Below are positions 5,446 to 50,830 of a stretch of DNA of 64,000 nucleotides, piece by piece (positions within the stretch are counted from its first letter, which is position 1; every line of letters starts with the position of its first letter). The notes under the pieces were generated by a model. The model was not told where the DNA came from. It did no database searches and saw nothing but the letters and a program-made list of their open reading frames with translations. The DNA comes from Acipenser ruthenus (Eukaryota), in NCBI RefSeq assembly GCF_902713425.1, contig NC_081212.1, forward strand, positions 9,972,261 to 10,036,260. The letters run 5' to 3'. Both the position numbers and the translations under genes were made by a program.

Positions 5446-6777
5446 TCTTTTTTTTTTTGCTGGTATTTTACACTCACAGTAAAGTCAGAATTTCAATCAT
5501 ACCGCACTGTGTGCACCTGAGTTTTGTGTGGATTCTGCTGCGTATCTCAAGATCTTCAAGAAGGGCCAGTCTTTCATGGTGAGCATGAAGAATGGCTACA
5601 TGTCTTGCATCATGGTGTTGCAGTATTTAGACATATTTACATTCACTTCGCACATGTGACTGCAGTGTTTCGTTATATGCATGAACATTATTTTTATATG
5701 TTATACTTCCTGCAATCTAGATATCTAGATATCTTAACATCTGGAGCTGTGATTTGGAACGTGGCTTCATTAACTTTATAGCTGCTGTGAAAAATAAAGA
5801 TTTGCATGAACTTTTAAACACAGGACTACACCTCACACTTCCTAATCTCTGGAAGTAATTCAGTGCACCCTTTTTTAAATGTGCGTATGCACTTATTATT
5901 TTGCTGTCGGTTTTCTTAATCTCTGCATATATGTTTCAAACCTGACACACAAAGAAAAGATGCACTTACAAATATTAAATGATCTGGATTAAATTACTAA
6001 ACACAGGCATGAAATATGGTCTTTATATTACTAAGAAAGCAGTTTTCATTTTAATATTTGAGATCAGCACTAAAGTGTATGAAGCCAGGGAGTAGTGGCA
6101 CTGGAGCTGTCCTCAAAGCATTGTGAACAGCTGACCCTTCACTGCATTGTACATGTCATTAAAACATGCACACACTAACTAGGGCTGGAACAATAAATTG
6201 ATAATATAATTTTTTTGCAGTGATAATTTTATCACGTTGAGAAAATATTACCGGTAATCATAATTGCCGTCTGTGACCCAGTGAAGCAGGAAACGTCACT
6301 GAACTGTCTGTGCAAGGTGTAAAACATGATCTGTGTGAGGACTGCGTACATTGGGAAGTACTGATTTTAAACAATATGCTTTTAACTTTGCGTCATGGTT
6401 TCATTTTGATAAGAAGTTGTACACTGGCAAAGCATGGCTGGTTTTCTAACATGAACACAAATATGTTTGTTTGTAAAATAAATAAACGCTAGCGCACTGT
6501 AAAATTACTGTAGAAAATCTGTTCCCATGGCGTTGCTATTGTAAAAAAAAAAGGTATAAATGAAAGATAGTTGGCTTTTAATGGAAGGAGAGGTGGTTTA
6601 TTTTATTAAACTGTCTGCATTCAAGCAGCCATGTGCAACTCAGTATGTTCCTAATATATATATTTTTTGTTAAACCTAGTTTAATTCTCTTAATGGCAAA
6701 TGCTTCCAGGTAACGTTAGCAATTTTGTTTCGTTATATTTAATACATTTGGTGGCAAATTAACAAATGTTTAAATAA

Positions 6778-7281: not shown

Positions 7282-7785
7282 ATTTCCCATTGCTTTGTAT
7301 ATAACCTTTTCTTCATAAGAATCCAAAAGTTATAATCCAACGTGTGTCCAAAAGCAAACAGTAGCCTCTTTTCTAAACCTTATTCCCAGTGTAAAATACA
7401 AATTCCCTCACTGTAGCCTAACCAGAAAATACAGCTTTTTTTTGTCAATGTATATTATCAATCAATTTTTATTTTTAAATAGCGCCTTTCACAATAGATC
7501 GCCGCAAAGCGCTTTACAAGGATACAAACAATAAATATTACAAAAACTAACAATAAATATTACAAAAACTAACAATAAGCAGTAAAAACAAAACAATATA
7601 ACAGTAAAACAAGCAAGTAAGGGTAAGAACATTAAGATATATAAACTAGATTATAAAAATGTGTTTTTAATCTAGTTTTCAAAGCAGCGACAGTGGGAGC
7701 TTCCATATGAAATCAAATCACCAAAAACCTCAACCTCCTTTGATTTGTATACAAATGTCCATGCATGTTTGCCTTTGGGACAAGT

Positions 7786-8275
7786 GGTTACAGTGTACAT
7801 TTTAGGCCTGAGTGACACCCCGTTCATGAGATACAGCTCATCAAAGTTGACTCATTTTGGACCACCCACCCAACCTTTCCGTGGTCATAACTTCCTCCAT
7901 AATTGACACAGAAAGGTAGTTTTGGTGTTGTTTTAAAGCTCTCTAATAGCACTATCTTCTCATTTCTCAGGTTCTGTGAAGTGTACAATAAAAAAAGTTG
8001 TGTGACCTTTGATCTCACCCAGGTCAAATCGCATAACCGTGGATTTTTGTCAGTTTTTGATATATTTTAGCCTAGACCCTTATCTACATTTCCTGCAAGT
8101 TTCATTTTGTGCCTGCCATTGGTTGATACACAGCACAGAGTTGAATGCAGAGTGTCTGGTGAATCTTCTAAGTGAAGCGATTACACACCTATACAATTAA
8201 ACAAATATATTTAGTTATAATCGAGTATACTCACCTGTTAAATTGAAGCTGCAGTGAACTGGTGCAGCTGTAACA
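7786..8275 (+). repeat. Left arm of long inverted repeat (about 490 bp) bounding a 7.8-kb composite element
   Basis: Roughly 90% reverse-complement match to 15091-15592. The ORF pair 8009-8200(+) and 15174-15365(-) encodes almost the same peptide, which shows the inverted copy. Confidence 0.8.
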
Positions 8276-8280
8276 GATTC

Positions 8281-10110
8281 ATAAGAAAGTTTATAAACGA
8301 GAGGAGGCCATTCAGCCCATCTTGCTCATTTGGTTGTTAGTAGCTTATTGATCCCAGAATCTCATCAAGCAGCTTCTTGAAGGATGTCAGCTTTGTTTTA
8401 CAACATTATTGGGGGGTTGGTTCCAGACCCCTGGTCCTTGTTTCTTTTTTCAGGTCAAAAAAGTACCTTGGGTCCACATTGTCAATACCTTTTAGAATTT
8501 TGAATGCTTGAATCAGATCACCGCATAGTCTTTGTTCAAGACTAAATAGATTCAATTCTTTTAGCTTGTCTGCATATGACATGCCTTTTAAACCTGGGAT
8601 AATTCTGGTCGCTCTCTATGCACTCTTTCTAGAGCAGCAATATCCTTTTTGTAGCAAGGTAACCAGAACTGAACACAATATTCTAAATTAGGTCTTACTA
8701 ATGCATTGTAAAGTTTTAACATTATTTCCCTTGATTTAAATTCAGCACTTCTCAGTATATATCCAAGCATCTTGTTGGCCTTTTTTTATAGCTTCCCCAC
8801 ATTGTCTAGATGAATACATTTCTGAGTCAACATAAACTCCTAGTCTTTTTCATAGTTTCCTTCTTCAATTTCAGTATCTCCCATATGATATTTATAATGC
8901 ACATTTTTATTGCCTGTGTGCAGTACCTTACACTTTTCTCTATTGAATGTAATTTGCCATGTGTCTGCTTTTTGGAATTGGTTTTAGCCCCCTTGGCAAT
9001 GTTCATTTCTATCTCTCTCTTGGCCTTTCTAACTTGACTTGCGTTTGCAGTTCCAAGTACTCTGTGTACTTTGTTCTTGGTCCCTTTTAAACGCTCTGTA
9101 AAGTGCCTTTTTTCTCTGGATATTTTTTTAAATTGATCTATTAAACCATTTTGGCCATTTTGTTCTAGATTTAGATTTGTCTACTTTTGGGATGTAATTG
9201 TTTTGCGCCTCTAGTACTAAATTTTTTTTAAAAAAGCCATTCTTTCCCTGTGGGTGTTTTTTCTACTTTACTCCAATCTACTTCTGTTAGTCTCTGTTTC
9301 ATACCTTCATAGTTTGCCTTTTTAAAATTGTAAACCTTAACTTTAGTCATTACTTTTGGGGTTTTAAAAAGCACTTCAAATGACACAATGTTGTGGTCTG
9401 AGTTTGCAAATTCTTTCTCTGTTTTAGTTATTCTGTCTTCGTTCTTTGAAAAGACTAAACCAAGGCATGCCTCCCCTCTAGTCGGTGCAATGACAAATTG
9501 CGTCAGGAAGGAGTCATTTATCATTTCTACCCTTTCAATTTTGTCCGTCGTGCCCCCCATCGGGTTTTCCCATTTTATATGGGCGAAGTTGAAATCCCCC
9601 ATTAGTATGGCTTCTCCTTTTCTACACGCATTTCGAATGTCATTGTATAACAGATAATTTTGCTCGGTGCCTGAATTTGGCGGTCTATAGCATGCCCCTA
9701 TTATTATGCCCTTTGAATTGTTGTCCATTATTCTGACCCATATTGATTCGGCGTTGTTTTCTTCGTCCAGATTTAACACCTGTGCTTCAAGACTATTTCT
9801 TATGTATAGCGCTACCCCTCCGCCTCTTCTGTCCTGTCTGTCTTTCCTATACAGTGTGTACCCACTAATATTATATTCGTCTCCATCATAAACCAAGTTT
9901 CTGTAACACCTATCACATCGCAGTTACTTGTTAGTACAACATTTTGTTTCTGGGACTTCTAGCATTTAGATAAATACATTTACTGGCTATCTTACCTGAA
10001 TTGTTGCCCTTGTTTTGATGTGGTCTCCCTTCTGTTTTTTTGTTGATTACTCCCCAAATCCAATTTGGCCTATTAACACATGTGACTAAAGTGTAGCACA
10101 GGTGAATTAA
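8281..10110 (-). mobile_element. CR1-like LINE copy (internally deleted): 3' tail, RT C-terminal fragment and apurinic endonuclease domain
   Basis: 3' tail GAGGAGGCCATTCAGCCCATCTTGCTC...TTATTGATCCCAGAATCTCATCAAGCAGCTTCTTGAAGG starts at 8281. RT C-terminal motif ...[19 protein letters not shown] is at 8588-8770(-). Endonuclease ORF at 9228-9896(-) reads ...YNISGYTLYRKDRQDRRGGGVALYIRNS.... The 5' region is collinear with 29740-30170. Confidence 0.8.
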
Positions 10111-12382
10111 ATACAGATGAATAGTGAAATGTGTCCTTTATATAGTCCTTCCAGGATTCCGCGATCGCAGAAAAAAAATCACAGAATTTGTTCTCTCTCG
10201 CAGAATTTTCCCTGTACATGTCACTAGAGCGCATGCATGCTATTTGTATAGTGAGGAATGTGGCGAGCTTTAGTTCAGCCATGGAGACATTCCTAAGGCC
10301 ATCGGTGAGCTCCAGAAACAAATCTAAATTAGCACCGAATATAATGGCAAAAGATAGGGCACAAATGCAAAATGCAAGTCCAGTATTTCCAATAACTCAC
10401 CATAGCTCCTGTTAAAACAGCAGAAGACCGTGACAACGACCATGGAAAGACAAACAGTGGCTACTAAAGAACGAAATAAGGTAAGATTATTATTATTACT
10501 ATTATTTTACAAAAGGATTTCATAGTTTAGTCGCAAGTTCAAAGTGAAGCAATGTTCTCTTACTCCTATGTGAAAGGTCAGAGAAAAACCATTGCTTGTA
10601 CCTTGCTTGTACTCCCTATGCTGCAGGTCCTGAAAGATGTCATTCTAATTATATATGGAAATACACACGTATTTTGTACATGGTGTAGTAACATAAATGC
10701 TCAAAAAGCAAGGGGGCAGCGCACTATATTAGATATTATCCGATTACTTGGGATGACAACATTCTTGTGAAAATCCTCTTTTTTTAAAATCGTTACTTTC
10801 CTGTTTGTTTTGTGGTATGTGATGTAGCACTTTAACATTGTGGTCAAAGAAACATAAAAGCTAGTTTATCAGCCAATCAGTGTCGCCTGTCACTGTTTCC
10901 AAGCGCTTGTTGCAGTTTCCAAACTATTTCTATATGCTGTCTTGATGTAGATACGTTTTAGAATTATAACATTTTGGTGAACAACACATGTTTCTAAAAA
11001 TACCCTGTTACATCTGTACAAAAAGCCTCATATTTGGCTTTGCCAGCAATATTAAGGTCATTTACTTTAAGGCCCTGTCCATACTACATAACCAATCTCG
11101 AGAACTGTACTCAAAAACGTTTTAATTAAACCTGCTCAAACTTTAGCGTCCACACTGAAGTACCGTTTCATGTTTAGTCGGGCGTAATCCGTCCACACAC
11201 AGTCACCTAATTCAAGTCACCTAATTTAACGTTGTGCTTTTGTTATTTTCCTCACTAGTTTAACATCCTGACAGATTTTGTTAAACATAGAAATGAATAC
11301 CTAGTGCGGAGTGTACACTGATAGCAAGTCAATTGTCAATCTGAAGTTTTTTTGCTAAGCAGTCAGCATCTTCAGGGGATTCTCATGAAGAAGATCACCC
11401 CTCTGCATCTCAGCCATCTACTTCTGACTGTACGAGTACTACAGTGACCGAAGCAGTAGTAATGCACAAAAACGCAAACAAAAAATACCTTCTTTGAATG
11501 GGAGATGAAGTATCCATGGACTGTTTATTGAGACGGCAAGATGTACTGTGTGTGAAAAAGCTGCTGGGCAAAAAAAAAAAAAAAAAAAAAAAGCATATAC
11601 ACACAAATGTACAGATTTTCAAGAATCTTCGCTTAAGACACAGACACGGTGATGCTGTTGCTGTTATTGGAAAGCAGAAAAATATGAAAACACATGTAGA
11701 TGAAGGCAACAAACAGTGCTTAGAATCCCGTCTCGCTGTCATGCAAACGGCCTACTGTTAGTATGTAACAAAGAAAAAAAGAGTGTCTGTGTTCATATGT
11801 AGATCTGTACACAGACAGAGATTGTTTAAACTATGATATAGCACAGAGTTTAAACATTTATAAAAATGTACCAAAATGCACATCCCTGCAGTTTATTCAC
11901 CTTTGTGTTAAAATGTTGTATTTGATGGATGGGATGCAGATTTTTGGGCATGTGCGATTCAGGAACGCATGAACAGAAATGCAAGCGCGACCTCTGTTAA
12001 ATACTGGCAGTTGACTCTAATTTACAATAACGAGCCAACTGCCAAAACAATTAACACATAATCTATCAATTACACATTTTTGTATGGCAGGGTGATTTTA
12101 ACCCCTCCCCTGCCACAGTGTATTTTTTAAAAATAGCATCCAATAGTCAGTGCTGTAAGAGTTTTTGAAAAAGTGAACTCTCTTTGCTTTATTGTATGTG
12201 TGTGTTTTCTTCTTCTTTGATTTACAGAAAATATGGCAAACATGTTTGTTCTGGTTTTTTATATATATTTTAAACATGTATATATTACACTTACAAGTTG
12301 AACATTCTTGACATTAAATTTTGTAGCTAAAATTCTTGCAGTTTTGCAGTCTATTTCACATTGAAGACAATTTGTTGCATAA

Positions 12383-14650
12383 ATGGCAAGTACTTCCAAT
12401 GTCTTTCTTGGCATTAAATACATCAAAGCTTGCTGTGAACCATTTGCAAAGCATTGTGGAGAGCGCCACACTAAAGGTCGCACCTTAACAAAGAAGCAGA
12501 TCAAGGACCACCAGAAGCTGAACGTTGTGTATGGCCAGAAGTTCTGTTACCCTTGTATGAAGTTGCTAGCCCATCATCCTCCTGACCAAGACCAAACATC
12601 ACCTTCAACACAAAGTGACCACAAGGTGTCTAGTTCAGAGAATCCAGCCCTCATGCTGTTCAAGACAAACAACCTGAAAGCAATGACATTTTCAAAGCTG
12701 AAAAGGAACATGAGATTTCACAAATAAACAAGGCCTTGGAGGCAATGCAAGAATCTCCACTGAAGAGAAGGAAACTGTCATAAAAGGTAAATGCAGTTCA
12801 GAAAGTAAAGAAGGTCGGAGAAGCAATGAAGAGAAAGCTAAGAAAGGTTTTCCCACAAACAGAAATGGAAGACCGTGAAACAATCAAGGAGCAGGCTCAG
12901 GCATCGATGATGGCCCAGTTGAAGGAAAAATGTAATTCAAATATCAGACGAAGTCAGTAAGTTCATATTTTGACAGCTGCCTCAATGTCTTGGTCTATAC
13001 GGAGGACTGCTGCTGAGTTTGGTGCTACCTCCCACATGTCCAGGACAGCCGAGGCTTTACAGGAAGAGAAGAGATGCCTATCGGATTCAAATCCAAACAT
13101 TGGGGGGAGAACACTCACAGAGGAGCTTGCTCAAATGGTAAAATTGTTCTACAACAGGGAAGATGTTAGTCGACTCATGGCTGGAGAGAACTATTTTGTT
13201 TCTGTTTACAATAAAGAGTCGGGAAGGAGGAAGCACCAACACAAACGGCTTGTTCTATGCTATCTTTCAGAGGCCTGTCGTTTCTTCAGATTACAGCATC
13301 CTGACATTAAGATCGGCTTCTCCAAATCTGCAGAGCTGAAACCAAAGGAGAGTGTATTGGCAGGCAGTAGCGGTACACATTTTGTGTGTGTCTGCACAGC
13401 ACACCAGAATGTAAAGCTGATGTTCATTTGTTCTTCCACAAGTGAGTGCCAGTACAGAAGTGCCTTTGATTCACTATCAACATTTCTTACCTTATCTCAG
13501 GAGTTCCCCACCTAACGTCGATTGCCACTTAGGAAAGTATGAAAATTGTCCATTATTCACGAGTCATCTACAAATGCTCTTTCAAGATAGCCTGGTGGAC
13601 TCAGTAGAGTATCGGAAGTGGGCTACAACTGACAGATCCACCCTTCAGACAATCAATGAACCTGTTGATCAGTTCATAGAGACTTTCAAAAGCCATCTGC
13701 AACGTCTTCGTCGACATGATCTCATAGTAAAGATGCAGATTGCATATTATCAACAGCTGAGGGATGAACTCCTTCAAGAAAATGAATTCCTCGTTGTTGG
13801 TGATTTTGCAGAAAACTTGACTTTCGTCATGCAAGATGAAGCACAATCACACCATTGGCACAACTCTAAGGCAACCATACATTATTTTGTTTGCTATTGG
13901 CAAGACAAAGATGAGAATTCTCAGCACATCTCATATGTTGCAGTATCAGAATGCAAGACTCATGACACAGCCTTTGTTTATCTTTTTCAAAAGCATATTT
14001 TGAGGTTCTTGGAGAACTAATTTAGGCGCTCAAGAAAAATCTATTAATTCTCTGACGGGTGTGCAGGACAATATAAAAACTGTAAAAATGTCCTCAACAT
14101 TTGGCAGCACTTGGAAGATTTTGGCGTGGAAGCAGAGTGGAACTTCTTTGCAACACCTCATGGCAAAGCACCCAGTGATGGTGTAGGAGGAACCATTAAA
14201 CGAATGGCAACAAAAGCCAGTTTGCAGCGTCCATACCATGACCAGATCCAGACTCCACACCAATTGTATAGGTTTGAAAAAGACAACATTCCTGCTCTTG
14301 AAGTAGAATACTTCACGATAGCACAATGGCAAACGGAGCAAGATTTTCTGAAGCAAAGATTCCTCAAGGTAAGAACCATGCCTGGCACACGGCATCTCTA
14401 CTTGCATGAGAGTTCTCCCAGTCAACAAAGCAAAGAGAAAAATCAATCACAGTCAAAGAGGTTGTCCTACCATTTGACCAAGTGAAAGAATATGTTACTG
14501 TTCAGTATGACAGTCACTGGTGGCTCGGGCTGGTGGTGTCTGCTGATCAGAAGAAACAGGAGGCTGAAATTAACTTCCTGCACCCGAATGGACCAGCACA
14601 ATCTTTCTGTTTCTCACATCGTCCAGATCAATTTATTGTAGACACAGGGA
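12383..14650 (+). pseudogene. Frameshifted transposase-like ORF of an unclassified DNA-transposon family (N-terminal Cys-rich region, CxC motif, DFAEN / SDGCAGQYKN / HGKAPSDGVGG motifs, C-terminal YDSHWWLG...FLHPNGP domain)
   Basis: Four successive + strand ORFs in shifting frames (12383-12727, 12970-13515, 13442-14020, 14111-14485) are collinear and read as one roughly 700-aa protein. Candidate splice signals are a donor at about 14368 (AAG|GTAAGAACC) and an acceptor at about 14877. The ORF lies inside the inverted-repeat-bounded element. Confidence 0.55.
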
Positions 14651-15090
14651 TGTGCTGACATCAGTGGAGCCAACAATTGTAACAGGAAGGACATACACCC
14701 TGAGAGACAAGGAGATGCCAAAGCATCAAAAGCCTTGACAGAGTGGCAACGAAGGAAAAGGGCAACTTAAGCATAGGTGAGTGGTAAACTGTGTTGCTTG
14801 CAGAATTATAAGGACAGAGACCTGAAAATGAAATATCTACATTTCCACCACTTCTAACAATACATTTTCTTTTCCAGGCTCAGTGATTCATTGGATTTGA
14901 ATAGTGGTAATTACAGCTCCTGGAGAAGCATCACTTAAAATACCAAACATGTGCTGACAGATGTACCACTGGTGGGGACAAAATTAAACGTGCACAATTC
15001 AGAATTGATTTATATTTAATTCACCTTTATTTGTTTGTTTCAGCCAATTGTGTAAATAGGGAACCTTGGTTAATTTGTTAATATATTAAT

Positions 15091-15592
15091 AGCTGTTACA
15101 GAAGCACCAGTTCACTGCAGCTTCAATTTAACAGGAGAGGAGAGTATACTCGATTGCAAATAAATATATTTGTTTAATTGTATAGGTGTGTAATCGCTTC
15201 ACTTAGAAGATTCACCTGACACTCTGCATTCAACTCTGTGCTGTGTATCAACCAATGGCAGGCACAAAATGAAACTTGCAGGAAATGTAGATAAGGGTCT
15301 AGGCTACAATCTATCAAAAACTGACAAAAAACCACAGTTACACGATTTGACCTGGGTGAGGTCAAAGGTCACACAACTTTTTTTTTTTTATCTTGTATTT
15401 CACATCAATTGAATGGATAGTCCTATTTGGGAGCTTTAAAACGACACCAACATCAGCTTTCTATGTCAATTCTGGAGGAAGTCATGACCATGTAAAGGTA
15501 GGGTGGGTGGTCCAAATCAGGTCAAGCTTTGATGACCTGTATCTCATGAATGGGAGGTCACTCAGGATTACAATTCACAGTGTAACCATGTG
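15091..15592 (-). repeat. Right arm of long inverted repeat (partner of 7786-8275)
   Basis: Reverse complement aligns to 7786-8275 with a few indels. Confidence 0.8.
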
Positions 15593-15599
15593 CAAAAGT

Positions 15600-15900
15600 T
15601 TACCACAATCAGAGGAGGTCAAGTGAAAAACGGCATATGGAATGACCCTTTCTTTACAGTGCTAGGCAGGTCATTCCATAATTTAGGGGCTTTATTGTTG
15701 TGTTTTTTTCTGAGTTTTGGGAATATGAAGTAACTCTGCATCCTGTGAACGGAGTGAGTGTCTAGGAACATATGGGGTTAAAAGATAATTTAATAAGATG
15801 GGGCAAGGCCATTTAAAGCCTTGTAGGCCTTCAAATCTAAACTGGACAGGAAGCCAGTGCAAAGATGCTAACACAGGGGTAACGTGTTCTTGTCTCTTAG
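15600..15900 (-). mobile_element. L2-clade LINE C-terminal fragment (minus strand)
   Basis: ORF 15692-15874(-) reads LHWLPVQFRFE...LLTPYVPRHSLRSQDAELLHIPKTQ. Its continuation in another frame reads APKLWNDLPSTV. Both are L2 ORF2 C-terminal motifs. The fragment abuts the right inverted-repeat arm. Confidence 0.6.
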
Positions 15901-16540
15901 GTTAAAAGGTCAAAAGAAGCATTTTTGTACAAGCTGCAGACAAGAAATAACATGACTATACCAGAGAAAAGGGCATTACAGTAATCAGTCCTTGAAGATA
16001 CAAAAGCATGCATCAGTTTCTCAGCATCTGGTCAGGAAAGAATACTTTTCAATTTGGCGATATTTCTTAGATGAAAGAAAGAGATTTTGGTAACATTTCT
16101 AATGTGCGGTTCAAAAAATGATCTGGGTCAAAGATCACTCCTAAGTAGGTCTGTCAAACGATTAAAAAAAATGTATCTTAGTTAACCTTGGTTTTAATCG
16201 CATATTTAATTGATACAATTACAGCATCCATCTCAAACATGGCAAACCAGGGTAAACTGGTCCTCCTATTTGTATGATACATAATAAAGATCAAATGGTT
16301 GATCTTTCTGTTAAAAGACAAACCTTAAATGAGACAGGGAGACTACGTAATGATACCGACTATAAAATCCACTTACTCTTCATTCAAGAACCACTTGGTG
16401 AACTCCAGTGAAGTATGTTGTGTGGTCTTGTACCACGACACAAATGATACATACCGCTATTCCGATACGATGTATCATGTACCTAAAGTATTCATCAATA
16501 CACAATGAATCATTACACCCCTATTCAAAACATAACTTAC

Positions 16541-21669: not shown

Positions 21670-22130
21670 ATGTAGGCACCTTCAGCAGCTTCTCGTCGTG
21701 TTCTATTCCCCTCTATATGGTGTTTGCAATCATTCTGAATGGTTCTGGGTTTTGTTGTCCAATGTAGACACCTTCAGCAGCTTCTCGTCGTGTTCTATTC
21801 CCCTCTATATGGTGTTTGCCATCATTCTGAATGGTTCTGGGTTTTGCTGTCCAATGTAGGCACCTTCAGCAGCTTCTCGTCGTGTTCTATTCCCCTCTAT
21901 ATGGTGTTTGCCATCATTCTGAATGGTTCTGGGTTTTGCTGTCCAATGTAGACACCTTCAGCAGCTTCTCGTCGTGTTCTATTCCCCTCTATATGGTGTT
22001 TGCAATCATTCTGAATGGTTCTGGGTTTTGCTGTCCAATGTAGGCAACTTCAGCAGCTTCTCGTCGTGTTCTATTCCCCTCTATATGGTGTTTGCAATCA
22101 TTCTCAATGGTTCTGGGTTTTGCTGTCCAA
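21670..22130. repeat. 92-bp minisatellite, about 5 copies
   Basis: The unit GTAGGCACCTTCAGCAGCTTCTCGTCGTGTTCTATTCCCCTCTATATGGTGTTTGC[C/A]ATCATTCTGAATGGTTCTGGGTTTTGCTGTCCAAT is repeated. The overlapping ORFs 21629-22239 are artefacts of the repeat. Confidence 0.95.
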
Positions 22131-22343
22131 TACTGAGCTCTTATCATTTCATCTTCAAATCCACTTGAACCTGCTTTGCGCTTCTCTGGAGAAGAGCTGG
22201 CACTTAACAGCCTTCCTTCCAAATCACCTGACACTATGAACTTTCAACTTCGGAGCCCCTCTTACTCTGCATGTATAGAGAACAATAAGAACATACTAGC
22301 ATTTCTTTATTTTTACTATTTTTTTCTTTTCTTTCTTTTTTTT

Positions 22344-22822
22344 AAATGTAGTCGTTGCCAATTTTTACCCCAGTTTTCTCCCCAATTTGGAATCGCCAAT
22401 TGGGTTATTATTAATCCCGGTTGACCACTGCAACCCCCGGCGACTTGGGAAATGAAGGCTGAAACACGTGTTCCCCGAAACTTCTTTCTGCCAAGCTGTC
22501 ATTTTTCGCACTGCAGATCCACAGCGAAGCCAGCAGACCCATAGTGCCGGAGGACAACACAGATCTGAATGGCTCCAGTGCAGACCTGCAGGCACCCTAT
22601 CAGCCACAGGGGTCGCTGCTGTGCAGTGAACTGTGGATTGCCCTGCCGATCTAAGGCCTCCCTACCCAGGCGGTGCTCGGCCAATTGTGCGCCGCCCACT
22701 GGGAACCCCCAGTCATGGTCGGCAATGGCATAGCCTGGATTCGAATTTGTGATCTCCAGGCTATAAGGCGCATCCTGCACTCCACACGGAGCTTCTTTAC
22801 TGGATGCACCACTCGGGAGCCT
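22344..22822 (-). mobile_element. tRNA-derived SINE (family C, about 480 bp), minus orientation
   Basis: Reverse complement matches 51284-51762 and 58957-59455 (head GGGGGCTCCCGAGTGGCGCA...GTTCGAGTCCAGGC; tail ...ATTGGCAACGACTAAATT). Confidence 0.8.
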
Positions 22823-22999
22823 TGCATGCCTTTTCATCTTGTCTGTCACTATCTTCTTTTCTTTTGGAATTGGATTACTGTTTGAATGTACCTGAAGTTT
22901 ATAGATAAGCTTCAAGTTCATGTTTGTGGACATTGTTTTTCACTTTGATAGAAGCCGTGATCTGGATTATAGAGCCGGTGTAGTGTTAGAAAGTGTTAC

Positions 23000-25330
23000 A
23001 TTGTCAGAATGTGGTATGTGTACCACAACTTGTAAGCAGAAAGTGGTACGATGTCAGATTGATTGAATGGGTGCTTCCCTGGTTTCAGTCTGGGAAGGCA
23101 GAGGAGTCCGCGGATCCTGGTCGGACCACTGGACGTCCCTGCATATTAACATGCTGGAGCTGCAGGCGGTCTCCCTTGCTCTTTGCCATTTCCTCCCAGT
23201 GCTAAGAGGTACACATGTGTTGGTCCGGACGGACAATATAACAGTGGTGGTGTATGTCAACCACCAGGATGGCCTACGGTCCCCGGGGTTGCATCGCATG
23301 GCCTTCAGGCTTTTGATGTGGGCTCAGAGGAACTTGCTGTCCCTGCGAGCGACGCACATTCCCAGAGCAGTGAACTGGGCAGCGGACCTCCTCTTGAGGG
23401 AGGATCCCCTTTCATCAGAGTGGTGACTCCACCCTCAGGTAGTGGAGCGCATTTGGGAACGATTCGGGAGGTCGCAGGTCGATCTCTTTGCCTTGGTGGA
23501 GACGACACACTGCCCCCTGTGGTACTCCCTCCACCGCTTAGGTGGTCCACTCACGAATGGCCCAAAACGTTTTTGTATGCTTTCCCACCTATACCGCTGC
23601 TCCCGGCCTTTCTCGAAAAGGTCTGGCGTCAATTCTCCTAGTGGCCCCCAGTTGGCCAAGGATAATCTGGTTCTCGACCCTCTGCACATGGATCTCCTGA
23701 GTCAGACGAGAGGCACTGTTTGGCACCTGGAACCGGGCAGGTTCCGGCTATGGGTCTGGCCCATGAAAGGGACCGCTGGTTAGCCCTAGGGCTATTAGAT
23801 GCGGTTGTGGGTACTTTGCAGAATGCTAGGGCACACTCCACTACGTTTTTTTACACCTACAAGTGGAAGTATTTTCAAGCTTGGTGTCTGGCTAGAAGCC
23901 ATGACCCAATCTCTTGCCCTATGCCGGTTATCTTACAGTTTCTGCATGAACTGCTTGATGCTGGTAGGTCACTGTGGCAATGTGCCCCGCCCCTGTGTGC
24001 ATATTATGTGTTGTATGTTGCGTGCGTGTGTTAATGTTGGTGTATAGATTGGTACACGGGATATAAACGGGTCTGTGTTTCACGTGTGATTTAAAAAGTG
24101 TAGATTTGTATTTAGGCACGAGGAGGGCACAAATCACTTCACGTGCTGGTTAAATGTAATATGTAAGCACGGGGTTGCACAGAATTAATTCACGTGCTGG
24201 GATTCAAGTGAATAATTAATTAGTAATTGAATCCCAGCACAACAGTATATATAGATGCACATTTCATTCAGTCAGGGTTGGGTGTTCAGTGAGTGGAGAA
24301 CGGGTGTGGAGCGGAGGTAAATGTTAATGAAAAGAATAAGAAGTAGTAGTTGTTTTCACTCACCGTGTTTGTTTAAGTGTCTAGTACGTTTTGTTTGTCT
24401 ATTTATTTTGGCGCAAGTGCCGTGTCCTGTGTTTTTGTGTTCCAACCTTTTATTTTCTGTTCTGTTTATTAAATGCTGAGCGAAAGCATTCGCTCAGCTT
24501 CACCAAACCACACATCTTTGTCTGTTTATTTCCTGGCTCTGGTCTGACGCCACCCACTCCGGCCGTCTTTGTGACAGTCACCTTCCACTTTGAAGGTGTA
24601 TTTAGCAGCTATTTCTGCATGCCATGCACCCATAGATTCGGTGTCTCCAGGTGCGCATTTCTTGGCTACCTGATTTCTTAAAGACACTCTGCGATTATGC
24701 CCTCCCAGGAGACTGTTCTCCCCGAATTGAGCCTTGATATTGTACTGGAGGTTTTCACGAAGGCCCCGTTTGAGCCCATATACTCCATAGAGTTGAAGCA
24801 TCTGTCTATGAAGACAGCCTTCCTCGTGGCTATCACCTCTGCTAAGCGGGTCAGTGAGCTGCAGGCGCTGTCTGTGCACAGCTCCTGCATGCACATTTGG
24901 GAGGATGGCAGCAGGGTGTCTCTGCGCACCAACCCTGCTTTTCTCCCCAAGGTGATCACAGCCTTCCACATGAATCAGTCTGTGGAACTGGAGTCCTTCC
25001 ATCCACCCCTGTTAGCTTCTACGGAGGATGAGAGATTGAGATTGGTCCCTCATATGCTGCTGTTCCTTCTCCCTTGCAATGGCTCTGGTATACATTATCC
25101 CATACATAATGTCTTTGGTGGTCGTCTTTGAATTGAAAGGGAATGTTAGGTTACTTACCGTAACCCTGGTTTTAATCCCTCTGTGGACGGGACCGAGAGC
25201 GTCATCGCAGGAAGGGGCCTATCGGCAACTCTGGTATAGAGAGCTCAGCAATTACCTACCCAATGGGCAGGCATATCCTATACATAATGTCGTTGGTGGT
25301 CGTCTCTTTTAGGGAACTAGGGTTACGGTA
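23000..25330 (+). mobile_element. DIRS-like tyrosine-recombinase retroelement fragment (RNase H, DIRS-specific domain, YR N-terminus; frameshifted) with palindromic terminal structure
   Basis: RNase H reads LELQAVSLALCHFLPVLRGTHVLVRTDNITVVVYVNHQDG at 23067-23426. The VDLFA...YAFPPIPLL domain is split across frames at 23442-23640. The recombinase N-terminus spans 23720-24034 and 24697-25131 (...AFLVAITSAKRVSELQAL...). Positions 25134-25320 hold a perfect 19-bp inverted repeat, GGTTACTTACCGTAACCCT / AGGGTTACGGTAAGTAACC, flanked by direct repeats CATACATAATGTC[T/G]TTGGTGGTCGTCT. Confidence 0.6.
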
Positions 25331-26399: not shown

Positions 26400-27120
26400 G
26401 AACAATGCAAGGAAGTTAATTTGGAGAAGCAGAAATGACAGCACCAAATGGGCTACCCTGTGTTTTGACTGAAATGTACACTGTTGCAGCAGCAAAGGTA
26501 ATTCAAAATGATCTGATGACATTTAATATAGAAAAGTGTAAGGTACTGCACGCAGGCAATAGAAATGTGCATTATAAATACCATATGGGAGACACTAAAA
26601 TTCAAGAAGGAATCTATGAAAAATCTAGGAATCTAGGAGTTTATGTTGACTCAGAAATGTCTTCATCTAGACAATATGGGGAAGCTATAAAAAAAGGCTA
26701 ACAAAATGCTCTGACATATTGGGAAAACTGTTGAATTTAAATCAAGGGAAGTAATGTTAAAACTTTACAATGCATTAGTAAGACCTCATCTAGAATATTG
26801 TGTTCAGTTGTGGTCACCTCGTTACAAAAAGGATATTGCTGCCCGAGAAAGAGTGCAAAGAAGAATGACCAGAATTATCCCTGGTTTAAAATGCATGTCA
26901 TATGCAGACAGGTTAAAACAATTGAATATTTTCAGTCTTGGACAAAGAAGACTACGCGGCGATCTGATTCAAGCATTCAGAATTCTAAAAGGTATTGACA
27001 ATGTCGACCCAGGGGATTTTTTCAACCTGAAAAAAGAAACAAGAACTCCCCATAATCTCCACCTCCCAACCCCACGTGTAATAATGTTAAGAATTCTTAC
27101 CTTACATATAATTAACCAAA
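26400..27120 (+). mobile_element. CR1-like LINE RT C-terminal fragment (plus orientation)
   Basis: ORFs 26435-26701 and 26754-27164 read ...KCKVLHAGNRN...[45 protein letters not shown]...[16 protein letters not shown]. This is the CR1 RT thumb/C-terminal region, found also in chicken CR1. Confidence 0.8.
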
Positions 27121-27139
27121 CAAATTCTACAATAACAAA

Positions 27140-30100
27140 ATATCTTTGCTTGTTTGGTTGTTAGGAGCTTATTGATCCCAGAATCTCATCAAGCAGCTTC
27201 TTGAAGGTTCCCAGGGTGTCAGCTTCAACAACATTACTGGGGAGTTGGTTCCAGACTCCCACAATTCTCTGTGTAAAAAAGTGCCTCCTATTTTCTGTTC
27301 TGAATACCCCTTTGTCTAATCTCCATTTGTGACCCCTGTTCCTTGTTTCTTTTTTCAGGTTGAAAAAGTCCCCTGGGTCAACATTGTCTATACTTTTTAG
27401 AATTTTGAATGTTTGAATCAGATCGCCGCGTAGTCTTCTTTGTTCAATACTGAATAGATTAAATTCTTTTAGCCTGTTATGACATGCCTTTTAAACCAGG
27501 AATAATTCTGGTCACTCTTCTTTGCAGTCTTTCTAAACAGCAATATACTTTTTGTAGTGAGGTGACCAGAACTGAACACAATATTCTAGATGAGGTCTTA
27601 CTAATGCATTGTAAAGTTTTAACATTACTTCCCTTGATTTAAATTCACTTTTCACTATATATCCCAGCATTTTGTTGGTCTTTTTTATAGCTTACCCACA
27701 TTGTCTAGATGAAGACATTTCTGAGTCAACATAAACTCCTAGGTCTTTTTAATAGATTCCTTCTTCAATTTCAGTATCTCCCATATTGTATTTATAATGC
27801 ACATTTTTATTGCCTGCATGCAGTACCTTAAACTTTTCTCTATTAAATGTAATTTGCCGTGTGTCTTCCCAGTTCTGAATGCTGTCTAGATCATTTTGGA
27901 TGAACTTTGCTGCTTTTTTGTGTCATCTGCAAATTTTACAAGTTTGCTTACTATACCAGAATCCAAGTCATAAATGTAGATTAGGAATAGCAGAGGGCCT
28001 AATACTGATCCCTGTGGTACACCACTGGTTACCTCGCTCCATTTTGAGGTTTCTCCGCTAATCAGTACCTTCTGTTTTCTGCATGTTAACCACTCCATAA
28101 TCCATGTGCATACATTTCCTTGAATCCCTATTGCGTTCAGTTTGATAATTAATCTTTTATGCAGGACTTTGTCAAAAGTTTTCTGGAAATCTAAATAAAC
28201 CATGTCATATGCTTTGCAATTATCCATTGTTGATGTTGCATCCTCAAAAAAATCAAGCAGTTTAGTTAGACACGATCTCCCTTTCCTAAAACCATGCTGA
28301 CTGTCTCCCAGGATACTGTTACCATATAGGTAATTTTCCATTTTGGATCTTATTATAGTTTCCATAGGTTTACATATAATAGATGTCAGGCTTATTGGTC
28401 TGTAGTTACCTGGTTCGGTTTTGTCTCCCTTTTTGTGGATCGGTATTACGTTTGCAATTCTCCAGTCTGTCGGTACAACCCCTGTCTCAAGAGACTGATG
28501 CATGATCTTGGTTAGTGGTTTGGAAATAACTTCTTTCATTTCTTTGAGCAATATTGGGAGGATCTCATCTGACCCAGGGGATTTGTTTATTTTAAGAGCT
28601 CCTAGTCCCTTTAACATTTCTGCCTTGGTTATGCTAAAGTTATTTAAAACAGGATAGGAACAGTTAGACATGTGGGGCATGTTGTCCGTATCCTCCTTTG
28701 TAAAAACTTGTGAAAAGTACTCATTTAATATATTTGCTATTTTTTTCTCTTGGTCTATGATTTTGCAATGTATATCTCTTAGCCATTTAACCTCCACTTT
28801 GAATGTTCTCTTGCTATTATAATATTGGAAAAACTTTGTGGAATTGGTTTTATGCCCCCTAGCAATGTTCATTTCTATCGCTCTCTTGGCCTTTATAACT
28901 TCCTTTTTGATTTGCATTTGCAGTTCCAAGTACTCTTTCTGTGTACTTTTTTCTTGGTCCCTTTTAAACGCACTGTAAAGCGCCTTTTTTCGCTGAATAT
29001 TGTTTTAATTGATCTATTAAACCATTTTGGCCATTTTGTTTTAGATTTAGATTGGTCTACTTTTGGGATGTAATTGTTAAAAAACAGCCATCCTTTTTCT
29101 GTGGATGTTTTCTCTATTTACTCCAACTTCTATTAGTCTGTTTCATACCTTTATAGTTTGCCTTGTTATTTTTGGGGTTTTAAAAATCACTTAAAATGAG
29201 ACCATGTTGTGGTCTGAGTTTGCCAATGGTTCTCTGACCTCTGTTTTAGTTATTCTGTCTTTGTTATTAGAAAAGACTAAATCAAGGCATGCCTCCCCTC
29301 TAGTCGGTACCTTGACAAATTGCGTTAGGAAGCAGTCATTTGTCATTTCCACCATTTCAATTTCATCTGTCATGCTCCCCACCGGGTTTTCCTATTTTAT
29401 ATGGGGGAAGTTGAAATCCCCCATTAGTATGGCTTCTCCTTTGCTACACGTATTTCTAATGTCATTGTATAACAGATTATTTTGCTTGGTGTCTGAATTT
29501 GGTGGTCTGTATGTAGCATGCTCCTATTATTATGCCCTTTGAATTTTTGTCCATTATTCTGACCCATATTGATTCAGCGTTGTTTTCTTCGTCCAGATTT
29601 AACACTTGGGCTTCAAGACTATATCTTATGTATAGCACTACCCCTCCGCCTCTTCTGTCCTGCCTGTCTTTCCTATATAGTGTATACCCACTAATATTAT
29701 ATTCGTCTTCATTACTCTCAGATAACCAAGTTTCTGTAACACCTATCACATCGTAGTTACTTGTTAGTACAGTAGCTTCAAGTTCTAACATTTTGTTTCT
29801 AATACTTCTAGCATTTAGATAAATACATGTAATGGCTGTCTTACTATTATTATTATTATTATTATTATTTATTTCTTAGCAGACGCCCTTATCCAGGGCG
29901 ACTTACAATTGTTACAAGATATCACATTATTTTTACATACAATTACCCATTTATACAGTTGGGTTTTTACTGGAGCAATCTAGGTAAAGTACCTTGCTCA
30001 AGGGTACAGCAGCAGTGTCCCCACTGGGGATTGAACCCACAACCCTCCGGTCAAGAGTCCAGAGCCCTAACCACTACTCCACACTGCTGCCCCTGAGTTG

Positions 30101-30170
30101 TTGCCCTTGTTTTGATGTGGTCTCCCTTCTGTTTTTTTGTTAATTTCACCCCCCTTCATTTATAGTTTAA
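27140..30170 (-). mobile_element. CR1-like LINE, near-complete ORF2 (endonuclease plus reverse transcriptase) and 3' tail; contains a nested SINE
   Basis: 3' tail at 27140-27300. RT ORF 27886-28929(-) carries FADDTK/YLDFQKTFDKV motifs. Endonuclease fragments lie at 29191-29382 and 29477-29791(-). The 5' region is collinear with 9900-10110 except for a SINE inserted at 29846-30091. Confidence 0.85.
29846..30091 (-). mobile_element. tRNA-derived SINE (family B) nested in the CR1 5' region
   Basis: Full tRNA-like head with A box TGGAGTAGTGGTTAGGGC and B box GGTTCAATCCCCAGTGGGG. Tail GTAAGTCGCCCTGGATAAGGGCGTCTGCTAAGAAATAAAT(AAT)n. The empty-site homolog is at 9985-10000. Confidence 0.85.
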
Positions 30171-45358: not shown

Positions 45359-46949
45359 TACAGTGCCTTGCAAAAGTATTCAGACCCCTGACCAATTCTC
45401 TCATATTACTGGATTACAAATGGTACACTGAAATTTCTTTCTGTTTGATACTTAATTTTAAAACACTGAAACTCAAAATCAATTATTGTAAGGTGACATT
45501 GGTTTTATGTTGGGAAATATTTTTAAGAAAAATAAAAAACTGAAATATCTTGCTTGCCTAAGTATTCAACCCCTGTGCTGTGGAAGCTCCCAGTTTACAA
45601 CGATGAAAGAAATTGCCCTAACGAGGACACAATTACCTTACCATTGGCCTCCACCTGTGAACCATTAAAGTTGCTGTCACATTTTCTGGATAAAAACCCC
45701 ACTGTTGAAGGATCATTGGTCAGGCTGTGAATCTGAAGGAAAATGAAGACCAAAGAGCATTCTACAGAAGTTAGAGATAAAGTAATACAAATGCATAGAT
45801 TAGGGAAAGGGTATGAAATAATATCCAAGTGTTTGGATATCCCAGTGAGCACAGTTGGATCAATAATCAGGAAGTGGAAGCTGCATCACAATACCCAGGC
45901 ACTGCCAAGAAAAGGCCGTCCCTCAAAACTCAGCGCTTAAACAAGCGCTGAGAGAAGCCACAGAGAGGCCAACAATCACTTTGAAGGAGCTACAGAGTTC
46001 AGTGGCTGGGAGTGGAGTAATGGTGCACCAGTCAACCATATCAAGAGCTCTGCATAACACTGGCCTGTATGGGAGGGTGGCAAGAAAGAAGCCGTTACTC
46101 AAAAAGTACCATCTGAAAGCACGTCTGGAGTTTGCCAGAAAACATGAGAGTGACCCAGCTGTGGGAAAAGGTTTTGTGGTCAGATGAGACCAAGATAGAG
46201 CTTTTTGGCCAAAACTCAAAGCGTTATGTGTGGTGCAAACCTAACACTGCCCATGCCTCAAGACACACCATCCCTACAGTGAAGTATGGTGGTGGCAGCA
46301 TCATGCTGTGGGGATGCTTCTCATCAGCAGGGACTGGGCATCTTGTTAAAATTGAAGGAAGAATGGATGGAGCAAAATACAGGGAAATACTGCAAGAGAA
46401 CCTGCTTCAGTCCGCTAAAAAACTGATGAAAAACAATGATCCCAAGCACAAGGCCAAAGCAACATTGGAGTGGCTCAAGAACAAAAAGGTGAATGTCCTA
46501 CAGTGGCCCAGTCAAAGTCCTGATCTCAATCCCATTGAGAATCTGTGGCACTATTTGAAAATTGCGGTCCACAAGCATCGTCCAACCAACCTGAACAACC
46601 TGGAGCAAATCTGCCAAGAAGAATGGGCCAAAATCACTCCGACACTGTGTGCAAAGCTGGTACATACTTAACCCAAAAGACTTAAAGCTGTTATTGCAGC
46701 GAAAGGTGGCTGTACCAAATATTAATGTGTGGGGGTTGAATACTTATGCAAGCAAGATATTTCAGTTTTTTATTTTTCTTAAAAATATTTCCCAACATAA
46801 AACCAATGTCACCTTTACAATAATTGATTTTGAGTTTCAGTGTTTTAAAATAAAATATCAAACAGAACAAAATTTCAATGTACCATTTGTAATTCAGTAA
46901 TATGAGAGAATTGGTCAGGGGTCTGAATACTTTTGCAAGGCACTGTGTG
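45359..46949 (+). mobile_element. Tc1-like DNA transposon with roughly 200-bp terminal inverted repeats and a frameshifted transposase (pseudogene)
   Basis: IRs TACAGTGCCTTGCAAAAGTATTCAGACCCCTGACCAATTCTCTCATATTACTG... at 45359 and its reverse complement ending at 46947. The transposase is split over three frames (45743-45940, 45981-46187, 46132-46671) with the DDE catalytic residues present. Confidence 0.9.
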
Positions 46950-49320: not shown

Positions 49321-50215
49321 ACATAAGAAAGTTTCCAAACGAGAGGCCATTCAGCCCATCTTGCTCGTTTGGTTGTTAATCGCTTATTGATCCCAGAATC
49401 TCATCAAGCAGCTTCTTGAAGGATCAGGTTGAAAAAGTCCCCTGGGTTGACATTGTCAAAACCTTTTAGGATTTTGAATGTTTGAATCAGATCACCGCGT
49501 AGTCTTCTTTGCTCAAGACTGAACAGATTCAATTCTTTTAGCCTGTCTGCATATGACATGCCTTTTAAACCAGGGATAATTCTGGTCACTCTTCTTTGCA
49601 CTCTTTCTAGAGCAGCAATATCCTTTTTGTAGTGAGATGACTAGAACGGAACACAATATTCTACATGTGGTCTTACTAATGCATTGTAAAGTTTTAACAT
49701 TACTTCCCTTGATTTAAATTCAACACTTTTCACTATATTTACTAGCATTTTGTTGGCCTTTTTTATAGCTCTAGATGAAGACATTTCTGAGTCAACATAA
49801 ACTCCTAGATCTTTTTCATAGATTCCTTCTTCAATTTCAGTTTCTCCCATATGGTATTTATAATGCACATTTTATTGCCTGCATGCAGTACCTTACACTT
49901 TTCTCTATTAAATGTAATTTGCCATGTGTCTGCCCAGTTCTGAATGCTGTCTAGATCATTTTGAATGACCTTTGCTGCTGCAATGGTGTTTGCCACTCCT
50001 CCTATTTTTGTGTCGTTTGCAAACTTAACAAGTTTGCTTACTATACCAAAATCTAAATCATTAATGTAGATTAAGAAGAGCAGAGGACCTAATACTGATC
50101 CCTATTGTACTCCACTGGTTACCTCGCTCCATTTTGATGTTTCTCCTCGAATCAGTACTTTCTGTTTTCTACATATTAACCACTCCTTAATCCATGTGCA
50201 TGCATTTCCTTGAAT
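49321..50215 (-). mobile_element. CR1-like LINE 3' portion (RT C-terminus plus tail), minus orientation
   Basis: Tail at 49321-49400. Minus ORFs read ...[28 protein letters not shown] and ...[18 protein letters not shown]. Confidence 0.8.
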
Positions 50216-50464
50216 CCTTGCATTTCCTTGAATTAGTAGGCTTATCAAACCTAGTAGATTCAGCTATAGGTCCGTCAGCTCTGGCAGATTGTACTGTATT
50301 TGCTGAAGCACTTCTGGGTTCCCACGGCTAATTTAAAATCCAGTTTAATCCCTCTTGTTTAATTTAATTAGTCCCGTACTGTATGTCGCCTCACCAAGAG
50401 GTGCAGTCTGCTGGTCTTGTTCTGCCTGGACACTGCCATCACCCGTATGGACTGACAAATGTTT

Positions 50465-50830
50465 TAAACCGTCGTAATTGAATCTGCTCAGTCTTGAACA
50501 AAGAAGACTATGCGGCAATCTTATTCAAGCTTTCAAAATTCTAAAAGGCATTGACAATGTCGACCCAAGGTACTTTTTTGACCTGAAAGAAACGAGGACC
50601 AGGGTCACAAATGGACATTAGGTAGGGGCATTCAGAACAGAAAAATGGGAGGCACTTTTTTACACAGAGAATTGTTGGAGTCTGGAACCAACTCCCCAGT
50701 AATGTTGTTGTAGCTGACACCCTGGGGTCCTTCAAGAAGCTGCTTGATGAGATTCTGGGATCAATAAGCTACTAACAACCAAACGAGAAAGATGGTCCGA
50801 ATGGCCTCCTCTTGTTGTAACCTTTATGTT
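50465..50830 (+). mobile_element. CR1-like LINE 3' end (plus orientation), inverted relative to the 49321-50215 copy
   Basis: ...EQRRLCGNLIQAFKILKGIDNVDP..., then a 3' UTR ending ...AACCAAACGAGAAAGATGGTCCGAATGGCCTCCTCTTGTTGTAACCTTTATGTTCTTATGTTC. Confidence 0.8.

Follow-up and report, generated by a model that had tools for sequence, protein, structure and literature searches.

The window (the whole 64,000-nt stretch of Acipenser ruthenus DNA that was analysed) carries the relic of a transposase gene at 12383..14738 of the plus strand, made of five collinear pieces in alternating frames and closed by a natural TGA stop at 14736-14738. A tblastn search of intact homologues against the window recovered the pieces at 12425-12682 (frame 2), 12703-13428 (frame 1), 13433-14401 (frame 2), 14413-14640 (frame 1) and 14649-14714 (frame 3), collinear with intact homologues of 735-860 aa; for the homologue P0001 the joint E-value was 1e-159, far beyond chance. 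The original ATG is likely located at 12383, where MASTSNVFLGIKYIKACCEPF is the counterpart of MTTAKEKFILKQKSCCNPF in P0004, a protein from hagfish. This agrees with the start given by a first-pass annotation of the DNA, which had placed the gene at 12383-14650, but its end falls short, as the final 30 codons (DVLTSVEPTIVTGRTYTL...) lie in the third frame and bring the ORF to 14738.

A three-frame translation of 11800-15400, searched together with the ORF list, allowed us to find each of the motifs named in that annotation at or near its reported place. The Cys/His-rich part contains CCEPF (12431-12445), CYPC (12545-12556) and HFVCVCTAH (13378-13404), the core GDFAEN (13799-13816), SDGCAGQYKN (14051-14080) and HGKAPSDGVGG (14159-14191), and the C-terminal part YDSHWW (14506-14523) and FLHPNGP (14575-14595). 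Conservation was read from A1, a profile and alignment of 46 intact homologues, and an AlphaFold2 model (mean pLDDT 84.9) was obtained from A1 with P0004 as first sequence. The Cys-rich N-terminal segment and the CxC motif noticed earlier are both real features of the family. The former is a zinc-finger-like Cys/His motif (CC..H...CxxC; 12431..12556, plus strand) in which C15, C53 and C56 are nearly invariant, residues 10-60 being modelled with a pLDDT of about 90, and the latter belongs to an HxxCxCxxH motif (13378..13404, plus strand) whose H326, C329, C331 and H334 are invariant.

A phmmer search of a database of 5.8 billion proteins returned 164 matches among 8000 candidates scored, the best with an E-value of 4e-179. 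Intact relatives of 735-860 aa were found in hagfish (Myxine), Hydra, rotifers (Rotaria) and insects, all of them labelled 'uncharacterized', as had been stated for diverse animals in the first-pass annotation. Most of the phmmer relatives come from contigs, metagenomic or transcript-like, that measure about 3 kb and carry one ORF, and the homologous proteins are mostly single-exon. A search with the A1 profile reached 29,032 clusters (50% identity) at E<=1e-3 and 5,104 at E<=1e-30, a very large family size that fits a mobile element. Neither the reconstructed window protein nor any of 8 intact homologues matched a meaningful Pfam family, and the precomputed Pfam annotation of the full-length homologues was empty with the sole exception of P0056, an apparent fusion model which carries only laminin-type domains. 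Searches of the PDB gave only weak matches, to coiled-coil proteins with the single protein and to SH3 domains with the full profile. The database name 'Cc8L18.2' returned nothing in a literature search.

Element ends, nested LINE and host repeat

The relic lies between TIRs of about 590 bp that delimit an element of 7,954 bp (7695-15648). The left TIR (7695..8283, plus strand) begins with GGGAGCTTCCATATGAAATCAA... and the right TIR (15084..15648, minus strand), read inward from 15648, with GGGTCATTCCATATGCCG... Their inner 500 bp or so are about 90% identical: when 15084-15598 is reverse-complemented and aligned locally to 7773-8283, there are 452 matches and 49 mismatches, and the score of 693 compares with a shuffle maximum of 33. 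By blastn the two arms are 86% identical over 515 nt, and a self-match within the window pairs 15300-15598 with 7773-8074. The outer 78 nt of the TIRs have diverged and contain indels; they still start with the terminal motif common to the homologue loci, both window termini matching the GGGTCATTCCAT motif of six such loci. The 15-nt CATATGGAATGACCC at 15634-15648, once reverse-complemented, is identical to the left terminus of one of them (L008); a 22-nt terminus pattern, allowed up to 3 mismatches, had no match in the window. That the terminus match at 15637-15648 arose by chance from 'WND' codons of the flanking repeat is ruled out by the 500-nt TIR alignment.

A LINE fragment (8280..10055, minus strand) is nested at the inner edge of the left TIR. 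It comprises an endonuclease ORF (9228-9896) and the C-terminal tail of ORF2 (8406-8770), the RT region being largely missing, and is 82-92% identical by blastn to LINE copies at 26516-30152 and 49322-50825 of the window. Because of this insertion the left TIR has been pushed out to 7695-8283, and the nested LINE also accounts in part for the extra length of the window element over the homologue elements of 4.2-6.3 kb. The left TIR may continue beyond the LINE, tentatively, at 10100..10133 (plus strand), a 34-nt segment 82% complementary to 14993-15026 (score 38 vs a shuffle maximum of 30). Between the LINE and the ATG lies a stretch of about 2.2 kb (10134-12382), which we count against the reading of the locus as a Sola2 element set out below.

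The whole element was inserted inside a host repeat. The left flank (7600..7694, minus strand) is the distal half of a LINE/SINE-tail-like repeat reading TVAALKTRLKTHFYNL, and the right flank (15649..15960, minus strand) is the proximal half of the same repeat, reading ...LHWLPV...KAPKLWNDLPSTVKK. When 7600-7694 is joined to 15661-15960, with 8 nt beside the right terminus omitted, a single in-frame reading is restored (...KAPKLWNDLPSTVAALKTRLKTHFYNL). The flanks themselves, CAGT|GGG... and ...CCC|TTTC, offer no clean 4-bp target-site duplication (TSD); CAGT occurs again 8 nt outside the right end.

Among the homologue loci, the terminus form GGGTCATTCCATGTCAAATCAAC is common to six intact ones (L001, L004, L005, L007, L008 and L009), and perfect 4-bp TSDs flank four of these: AATA / AATA at L001 (TIRs of about 550 bp), ATAT / ATAT at L004 (about 685 bp), TTTG / TTTG at L008 (about 590 bp in the aligned part) and ATCT / ATCT at L009 (about 900 bp). 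The flanks of the other two are imperfect, namely ATTA / ATAG at L005 (TIRs of about 650 bp) and ATTA / TAAT at L007 (about 435 bp), and these two loci, like the window flanks, weigh against the Sola2 reading. At L002 the TIRs measure about 510-550 bp, the shared terminus is present at the left end only and there is no TSD; the Hydra locus L003 has long TIRs that end within (TA)n, where no TSD is readable, and L006 has long TIRs that do not carry the shared terminus. The TSD of Sola2 elements is 4 bp long and often AT-rich (PMC3627910), and the perfect 4-bp TSDs of the relatives agree with this published feature. TIRs of about 435-900 bp with the GGGTCATTCCAT terminus distinguish the animal elements described here from the amoebozoan Sola2-Fanzor elements, in which the TIRs measure 12-22 bp (PMC3627910). 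The shared GGGTCATTCCAT terminus combined with long TIRs across animal Sola2 loci is a mildly new description.

Decay of the copy and splice-like signals

The gene relic has suffered four frameshifts, near 12691-12703, 13428-13433, 14401-14413 and 14646-14649, and contains four internal stops, all TAA (12781, 12958, 14018 and 14045). A transposase cannot be encoded by the copy at 12383-14738. Given the 10-14% divergence of the TIR arms and the damaged outer ends, the copy is most likely immobile as well. Alternatively, the element could be intact or active, the frameshifts and stops being assembly or sequencing errors; indel errors are possible in long-read assemblies, and none of the three catalytic Asp codons has been lost from the decayed copy, which also retains most motifs. 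We consider this very improbable: four substitutions creating TAA codons are atypical of indel errors, a LINE fragment is nested in the left arm, the arms have diverged by 10-14%, and there are indels in the outermost 78 bp of the TIRs.

The first-pass annotation had further suggested that the source gene contained introns, with a donor at about 14368 and an acceptor at about 14877. Splice-like strings do exist in this region (AAGGTAAGAACC at 14366 and CTTTTCCAG at 14869), but their use as splice sites is contradicted by the coding sequence. The proposed donor, AAG|GTAAGAACC (14366), lies inside the codons for K-V-R-T-M-P-G-T, through which coding runs straight on and which align with a conserved ...TRTIPGT... 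(in A1, G665 is at least 90% conserved and T666 is invariant). The C-terminus of the ORF (TGRTYTL...) and its stop at 14736-14738 precede the proposed acceptor at 14869 by 131 nt. By tblastn against single-ORF homologues, all frame changes are small indels of 1-2 nt with no intervening sequence. The suggestion of introns was therefore abandoned for this locus, the donor lying within conserved codons, the stop preceding the acceptor and the ORF being collinear with single-ORF homologues.

These observations also bear on whether the ORF pieces could be the exons of an intron-containing host gene or of a domesticated transposase. Besides the splice-like strings at 14366 and 14869, such a reading could draw on one Hydra relative with a canonical 183-nt intron. 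Against it, the pieces abut or overlap when compared with the single-ORF homologues and are separated by shifts of 1-2 nt, four in-frame TAA stops interrupt them, the donor falls inside conserved codons with the natural stop before the acceptor, and the gene is located between its own TIRs. We thus attach very little weight to the exon reading and retain that of a decayed single transposase gene. The intron of the Hydra Sola2 gene (P0098, at L003), of the GT..AG type and located in the N-terminal zinc-finger region, indicates that introns occur within the Sola2 family.

Affiliation with the Sola2 group

According to the first-pass annotation, the protein was transposase-like and had an acidic core resembling that of DDE transposases, and could not be assigned to a named superfamily. 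The first part of this description is borne out by homology to named Sola2 transposases; the second was overturned by the same matches. Majorek et al. 2014 (PMC3985635) list Sola2-1_HM of Repbase as family E.12 and print its RNase H-like core in their supplement file 5, where it reads ...IIIIGDFAENYTFVVQDEIQSYHW...HISYCFISDDITHD...LHLFTDGCAGQYKNCKSFYNLC...EWNFFATSHG. In a BLASTP comparison this 130-aa core was 45% identical to the window translation over 129 aa, in a gapless alignment (E=2e-43), and 58% identical to the Hydra homologue P0098 (E=4e-48). Bao & Jurka 2013 (PMC3627910) supply full amoebozoan Sola2 transposases as supplementary data, and hhalign of A1 against the core of Sola2_DFa-2 from Dictyostelium fasciculatum yielded a probability of 97% (E=1e-10) with all three Asp motifs aligned (DFAEN with DFKEN, FSDG with WSDG and HGKGPCDG with HGKSDVD). 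The profile comparison, which had been set beforehand as the check on the claim of an unassignable family, placed the protein confidently in a well-described superfamily (Sola, group Sola2) with canonical architecture.

The catalytic core can be followed codon by codon on the plus strand. The first catalytic Asp codon (13802..13804, in VVGDFAEN) corresponds to D468, which is invariant in A1 and whose aligned partner in Sola2_DFa-2 is the D of DFKEN. The second (14054..14056, in FSDGCAGQYKN) corresponds to D555, conserved in at least 90% of A1, and its motif aligns with WSDG of Sola2_DFa-2 and with FTDGCAGQYKN of Sola2-1_HM. The third (14177..14179, in HGKAPSDGVGG) corresponds to D596, again invariant and aligned with HGKSDVD of Sola2_DFa-2. 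The modelled core has an RNase H topology in which beta-strand 1 (462-467) ends at D468, beta-strand 4 (549-554) at D555, and the helix (594-612) that follows beta-strand 5 starts at D596; the model thus predicts a D, D, D triad on an RNase H-like fold. Sola transposases are described as DDD enzymes, a feature that, like the termini of the family, was compared by way of later papers and supplements, and here too the third conserved acidic residue is an Asp (HGKxxxDG), so that the acidic catalytic core proposed earlier stands but not the E expected at its third position. Retroviral integrases and Tc1/mariner transposases have cores of the same RNase H-like DDE/D fold, with a sequence identity of only 8-18%, and differ in their accessory domains from the present proteins, which carry an N-terminal CC..H..CxxC finger, HxxCxCxxH and C4 motifs and a C-terminal Tudor-like barrel.

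Likeness to the Sola2 group (Sola2-1_HM of Hydra; Sola2_DFa-2 and Sola2_PPa-1 of dictyostelids) extends over a DFAEN / QDExQSxHW / SDGCAGQYKN / EWNFFATSHG core 45-58% identical to Sola2-1_HM. The three Asp positions, the TIRs and the single transposase ORF are held in common, as are the 4-bp TSDs of the relatives; nothing categorical separates the window element from the group, its peculiarities being that the copy is decayed, bears a nested LINE and has no clean TSD.

Other groups were compared in the same way. Sola1 and Sola3 have distantly related cores within the same superfamily, of which Sola1 was compared directly, and clusters E.10, E.12 and E.13 were grouped together by Majorek et al. 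(PMC3985635). With hhalign, the Sola1-1_AP core gave a probability of 3.3% against the profile, and the match was confined to the surroundings of the second Asp motif, where FYSDNCGGQNRN of Sola1-1_AP aligns with YFSDGCAAQYKN; membership in Sola1 is ruled out by this 3% probability. Dada elements are likewise DDE/D transposons of fish and invertebrates with zinc-finger motifs and no Pfam model. They encode multi-exon proteins of about 1400 aa with a DDE and a DxxH motif, generate TSDs of 6-7 bp and insert in small-RNA genes (snRNA or tRNA) (PMC3706591). The mostly single-exon homologues of 735-860 aa, the 4-bp TSDs and the insertion in a LINE/SINE-like repeat exclude this superfamily.

A KDZ/Zisupton-like affiliation had been offered as a guess in the first-pass annotation. 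The resemblance is superficial: a CxC-containing Cys/His motif lies upstream of the acidic core, and the family occurs in fish and lacks a classic transposase Pfam match. However, neither the window protein nor 8 intact homologues matched a KDZ or CxC family of Pfam at E<=1, the named Sola2 references match strongly (Sola2-1_HM without a gap), and the TSDs of the relatives measure 4 bp as against the 8 bp reported for Zisupton. Membership in the KDZ/Zisupton group is hardly conceivable, and the guess was dropped.

The assignment to Sola2 was made because the matches to Sola2-1_HM and Sola2_DFa-2 are strong and that to Sola1-1_AP reaches only 3%. Taken with the TIRs, it leaves us in very little doubt that 7695-15648 is a dead copy, about 8 kb long, of a DNA transposon of the Sola2 group (Sola superfamily), with 12383-14738 as its single transposase gene. 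The element is already known in kind and is ordinary genomic debris rather than a new protein family.

Predicted C-terminal barrel and proposed mobility of the intact element

The small barrel-like module that had been noticed at the C-terminus was recovered in the structural model. It occupies 14482..14696 on the plus strand (KEYVTVQYDSHWWLG...INFLHPNGP...TGRTY), with one frameshift inside at about 14646, and is confidently predicted to form a five-stranded SH3-like barrel of Tudor/SH3 type. Comparison figures for the barrel were 6.1 for the chromo-barrel of MRG15, 5.9 for that of KAT5 and 5.6-5.8 for the PWWP domain of NSD2. The conserved residues of the module (Y16, D17, W20, F39 and H41) are compatible with a putative aromatic cage for methyl-lysine or methyl-arginine. 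No prior mention of such a barrel for Sola2 was found in the searchable literature, which did not cover the defining paper of the family, and the Tudor/SH3-like prediction for this module is, like the description of the termini, mildly new. By functional analogy with the chromodomain of chromovirus integrases, and with the Royal-family readers (Tudor, chromo-barrel, PWWP, BAH) in mind, the barrel of animal Sola2 transposases might read chromatin marks, thereby tethering the transposase and giving a bias to its integration, a role that we regard as rather unlikely on present grounds.

From these features a mode of mobility can be proposed for the intact element. A transposase of about 800 aa would recognise long TIRs beginning with 5'-GGGTCATTCCAT, probably through the N-terminal CC..H..CxxC zinc finger and the helical region. 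At the ends of the TIRs, the DNA would then be cut and rejoined by the RNase H-like core with its three aspartates (DFAEN, SDG and HGKxxxDG) through metal-dependent hydrolysis and transesterification, as in DDE/D transposases in general. Cut-and-paste insertion with a 4-bp staggered cut of the target would leave a 4-bp TSD after repair. Finally, the Tudor/SH3-like barrel at the C-terminus may serve as the enzyme's tether to chromatin. The catalytic chemistry, the N-terminal DNA binding and the C-terminal reading of chromatin are thus put forward here as the presumed activities of a Sola2 transposase.

The finding has little weight for discovery, and its value lies in annotation. In the annotation of many animal genomes these ORFs go by the label 'uncharacterized protein' and, lacking a Pfam domain, can pass for an orphan family; they are actually Sola2 transposases. 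For curators of transposable elements, the conserved GGGTCATTCCAT terminus, the TIRs, which measure about 435-900 bp across seven loci, together with the 4-bp TSDs, and the predicted Tudor/SH3-like barrel may be useful features.

Junctions and stop codons of the Sola2 copy

The junctions of the decayed Sola2 copy (window 7695-15648) are irregular: CAGT directly adjoins the left terminus (7691-7694), and on the right (15649-15660) CAGT follows the terminus only after 8 nt (TTTCTTTA). Possible causes are filler DNA, a small rearrangement and chance. A perfect 12-nt inverted repeat, TATGGAATGACC ... GGTCATTCCATA (15636-15647 and 15669-15680, with a spacer of 21 nt), has the Sola2 right terminus as one arm, while its other arm consists of codons for 'LWND' in the host repeat alongside; it looks like a coincidental hairpin produced by the insertion. 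Within the broken transposase gene, the four internal stop codons (12781, 12958, 14018 and 14045) are all TAA, and in the alignment they stand at positions where the homologues have Lys or Tyr codons (AAA or TAY to TAA).

LINE copies and other mobile elements in the window

The left TIR carries a nested, internally deleted LINE fragment on the minus strand (8280-10055), whose family is characterised by an APE-type endonuclease ORF (9228-9896) and an ORF2 tail. Several copies of this one LINE family occur in the window, the related ones lying at 26516-30152 and 49322-50825. The unassigned stretch of about 2.2 kb separating the nested LINE from the transposase ATG (10134-12382) contains an (A)24 run at 11569-11593. 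It exceeds the spacer between TIR and ATG, which measures about 230-1460 bp in those relatives whose terminus is defined. A further retroposon insertion may be hidden in this stretch.

Two Tc1/mariner-type transposase ORFs were detected on the plus strand, at 46132-46671 and at 57271-58395; the latter is uninterrupted over 374 aa and may represent a young copy. A GC-richer patch at 22000-25200 (GC 0.50 at 22001-24000) harbors ORFs on both strands, including a plus-strand ORF reading '...LKHLSMKTAFLVAITSAKRVSELQALSV' (24697-25131), which resembles the N-terminal domain found in DIRS/Crypton-like elements, a tyrosine-recombinase type.

Gene structure and neighbours of Sola2 relatives

The Hydra vulgaris Sola2 gene P0098 contains a canonical GT..AG intron of 183 nt with a polypyrimidine tract (locus L003, about 6268-6450, CP147923.1), located inside the N-terminal zinc-finger region, and its excision brings back the conserved ...KKG|SLREINL... 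sequence. Two loci with intact Sola2 copies, L004 and L008, are metagenome-derived eukaryotic contigs on which these copies are surrounded by other transposable elements, namely P-element/THAP9-like transposase genes and DIRS-like genes (RVT_1 plus Phage_integrase) (L004 1-2494; L008 1-1275 and 6651-7463).

Among the hits of the profile search, many family members end near profile position 675-685 and therefore lack the C-terminal barrel (e.g. P0130, P0132 and P0137). The barrel module seems to be optional in Sola2; some of the barrel-less members may be due to contig truncation.
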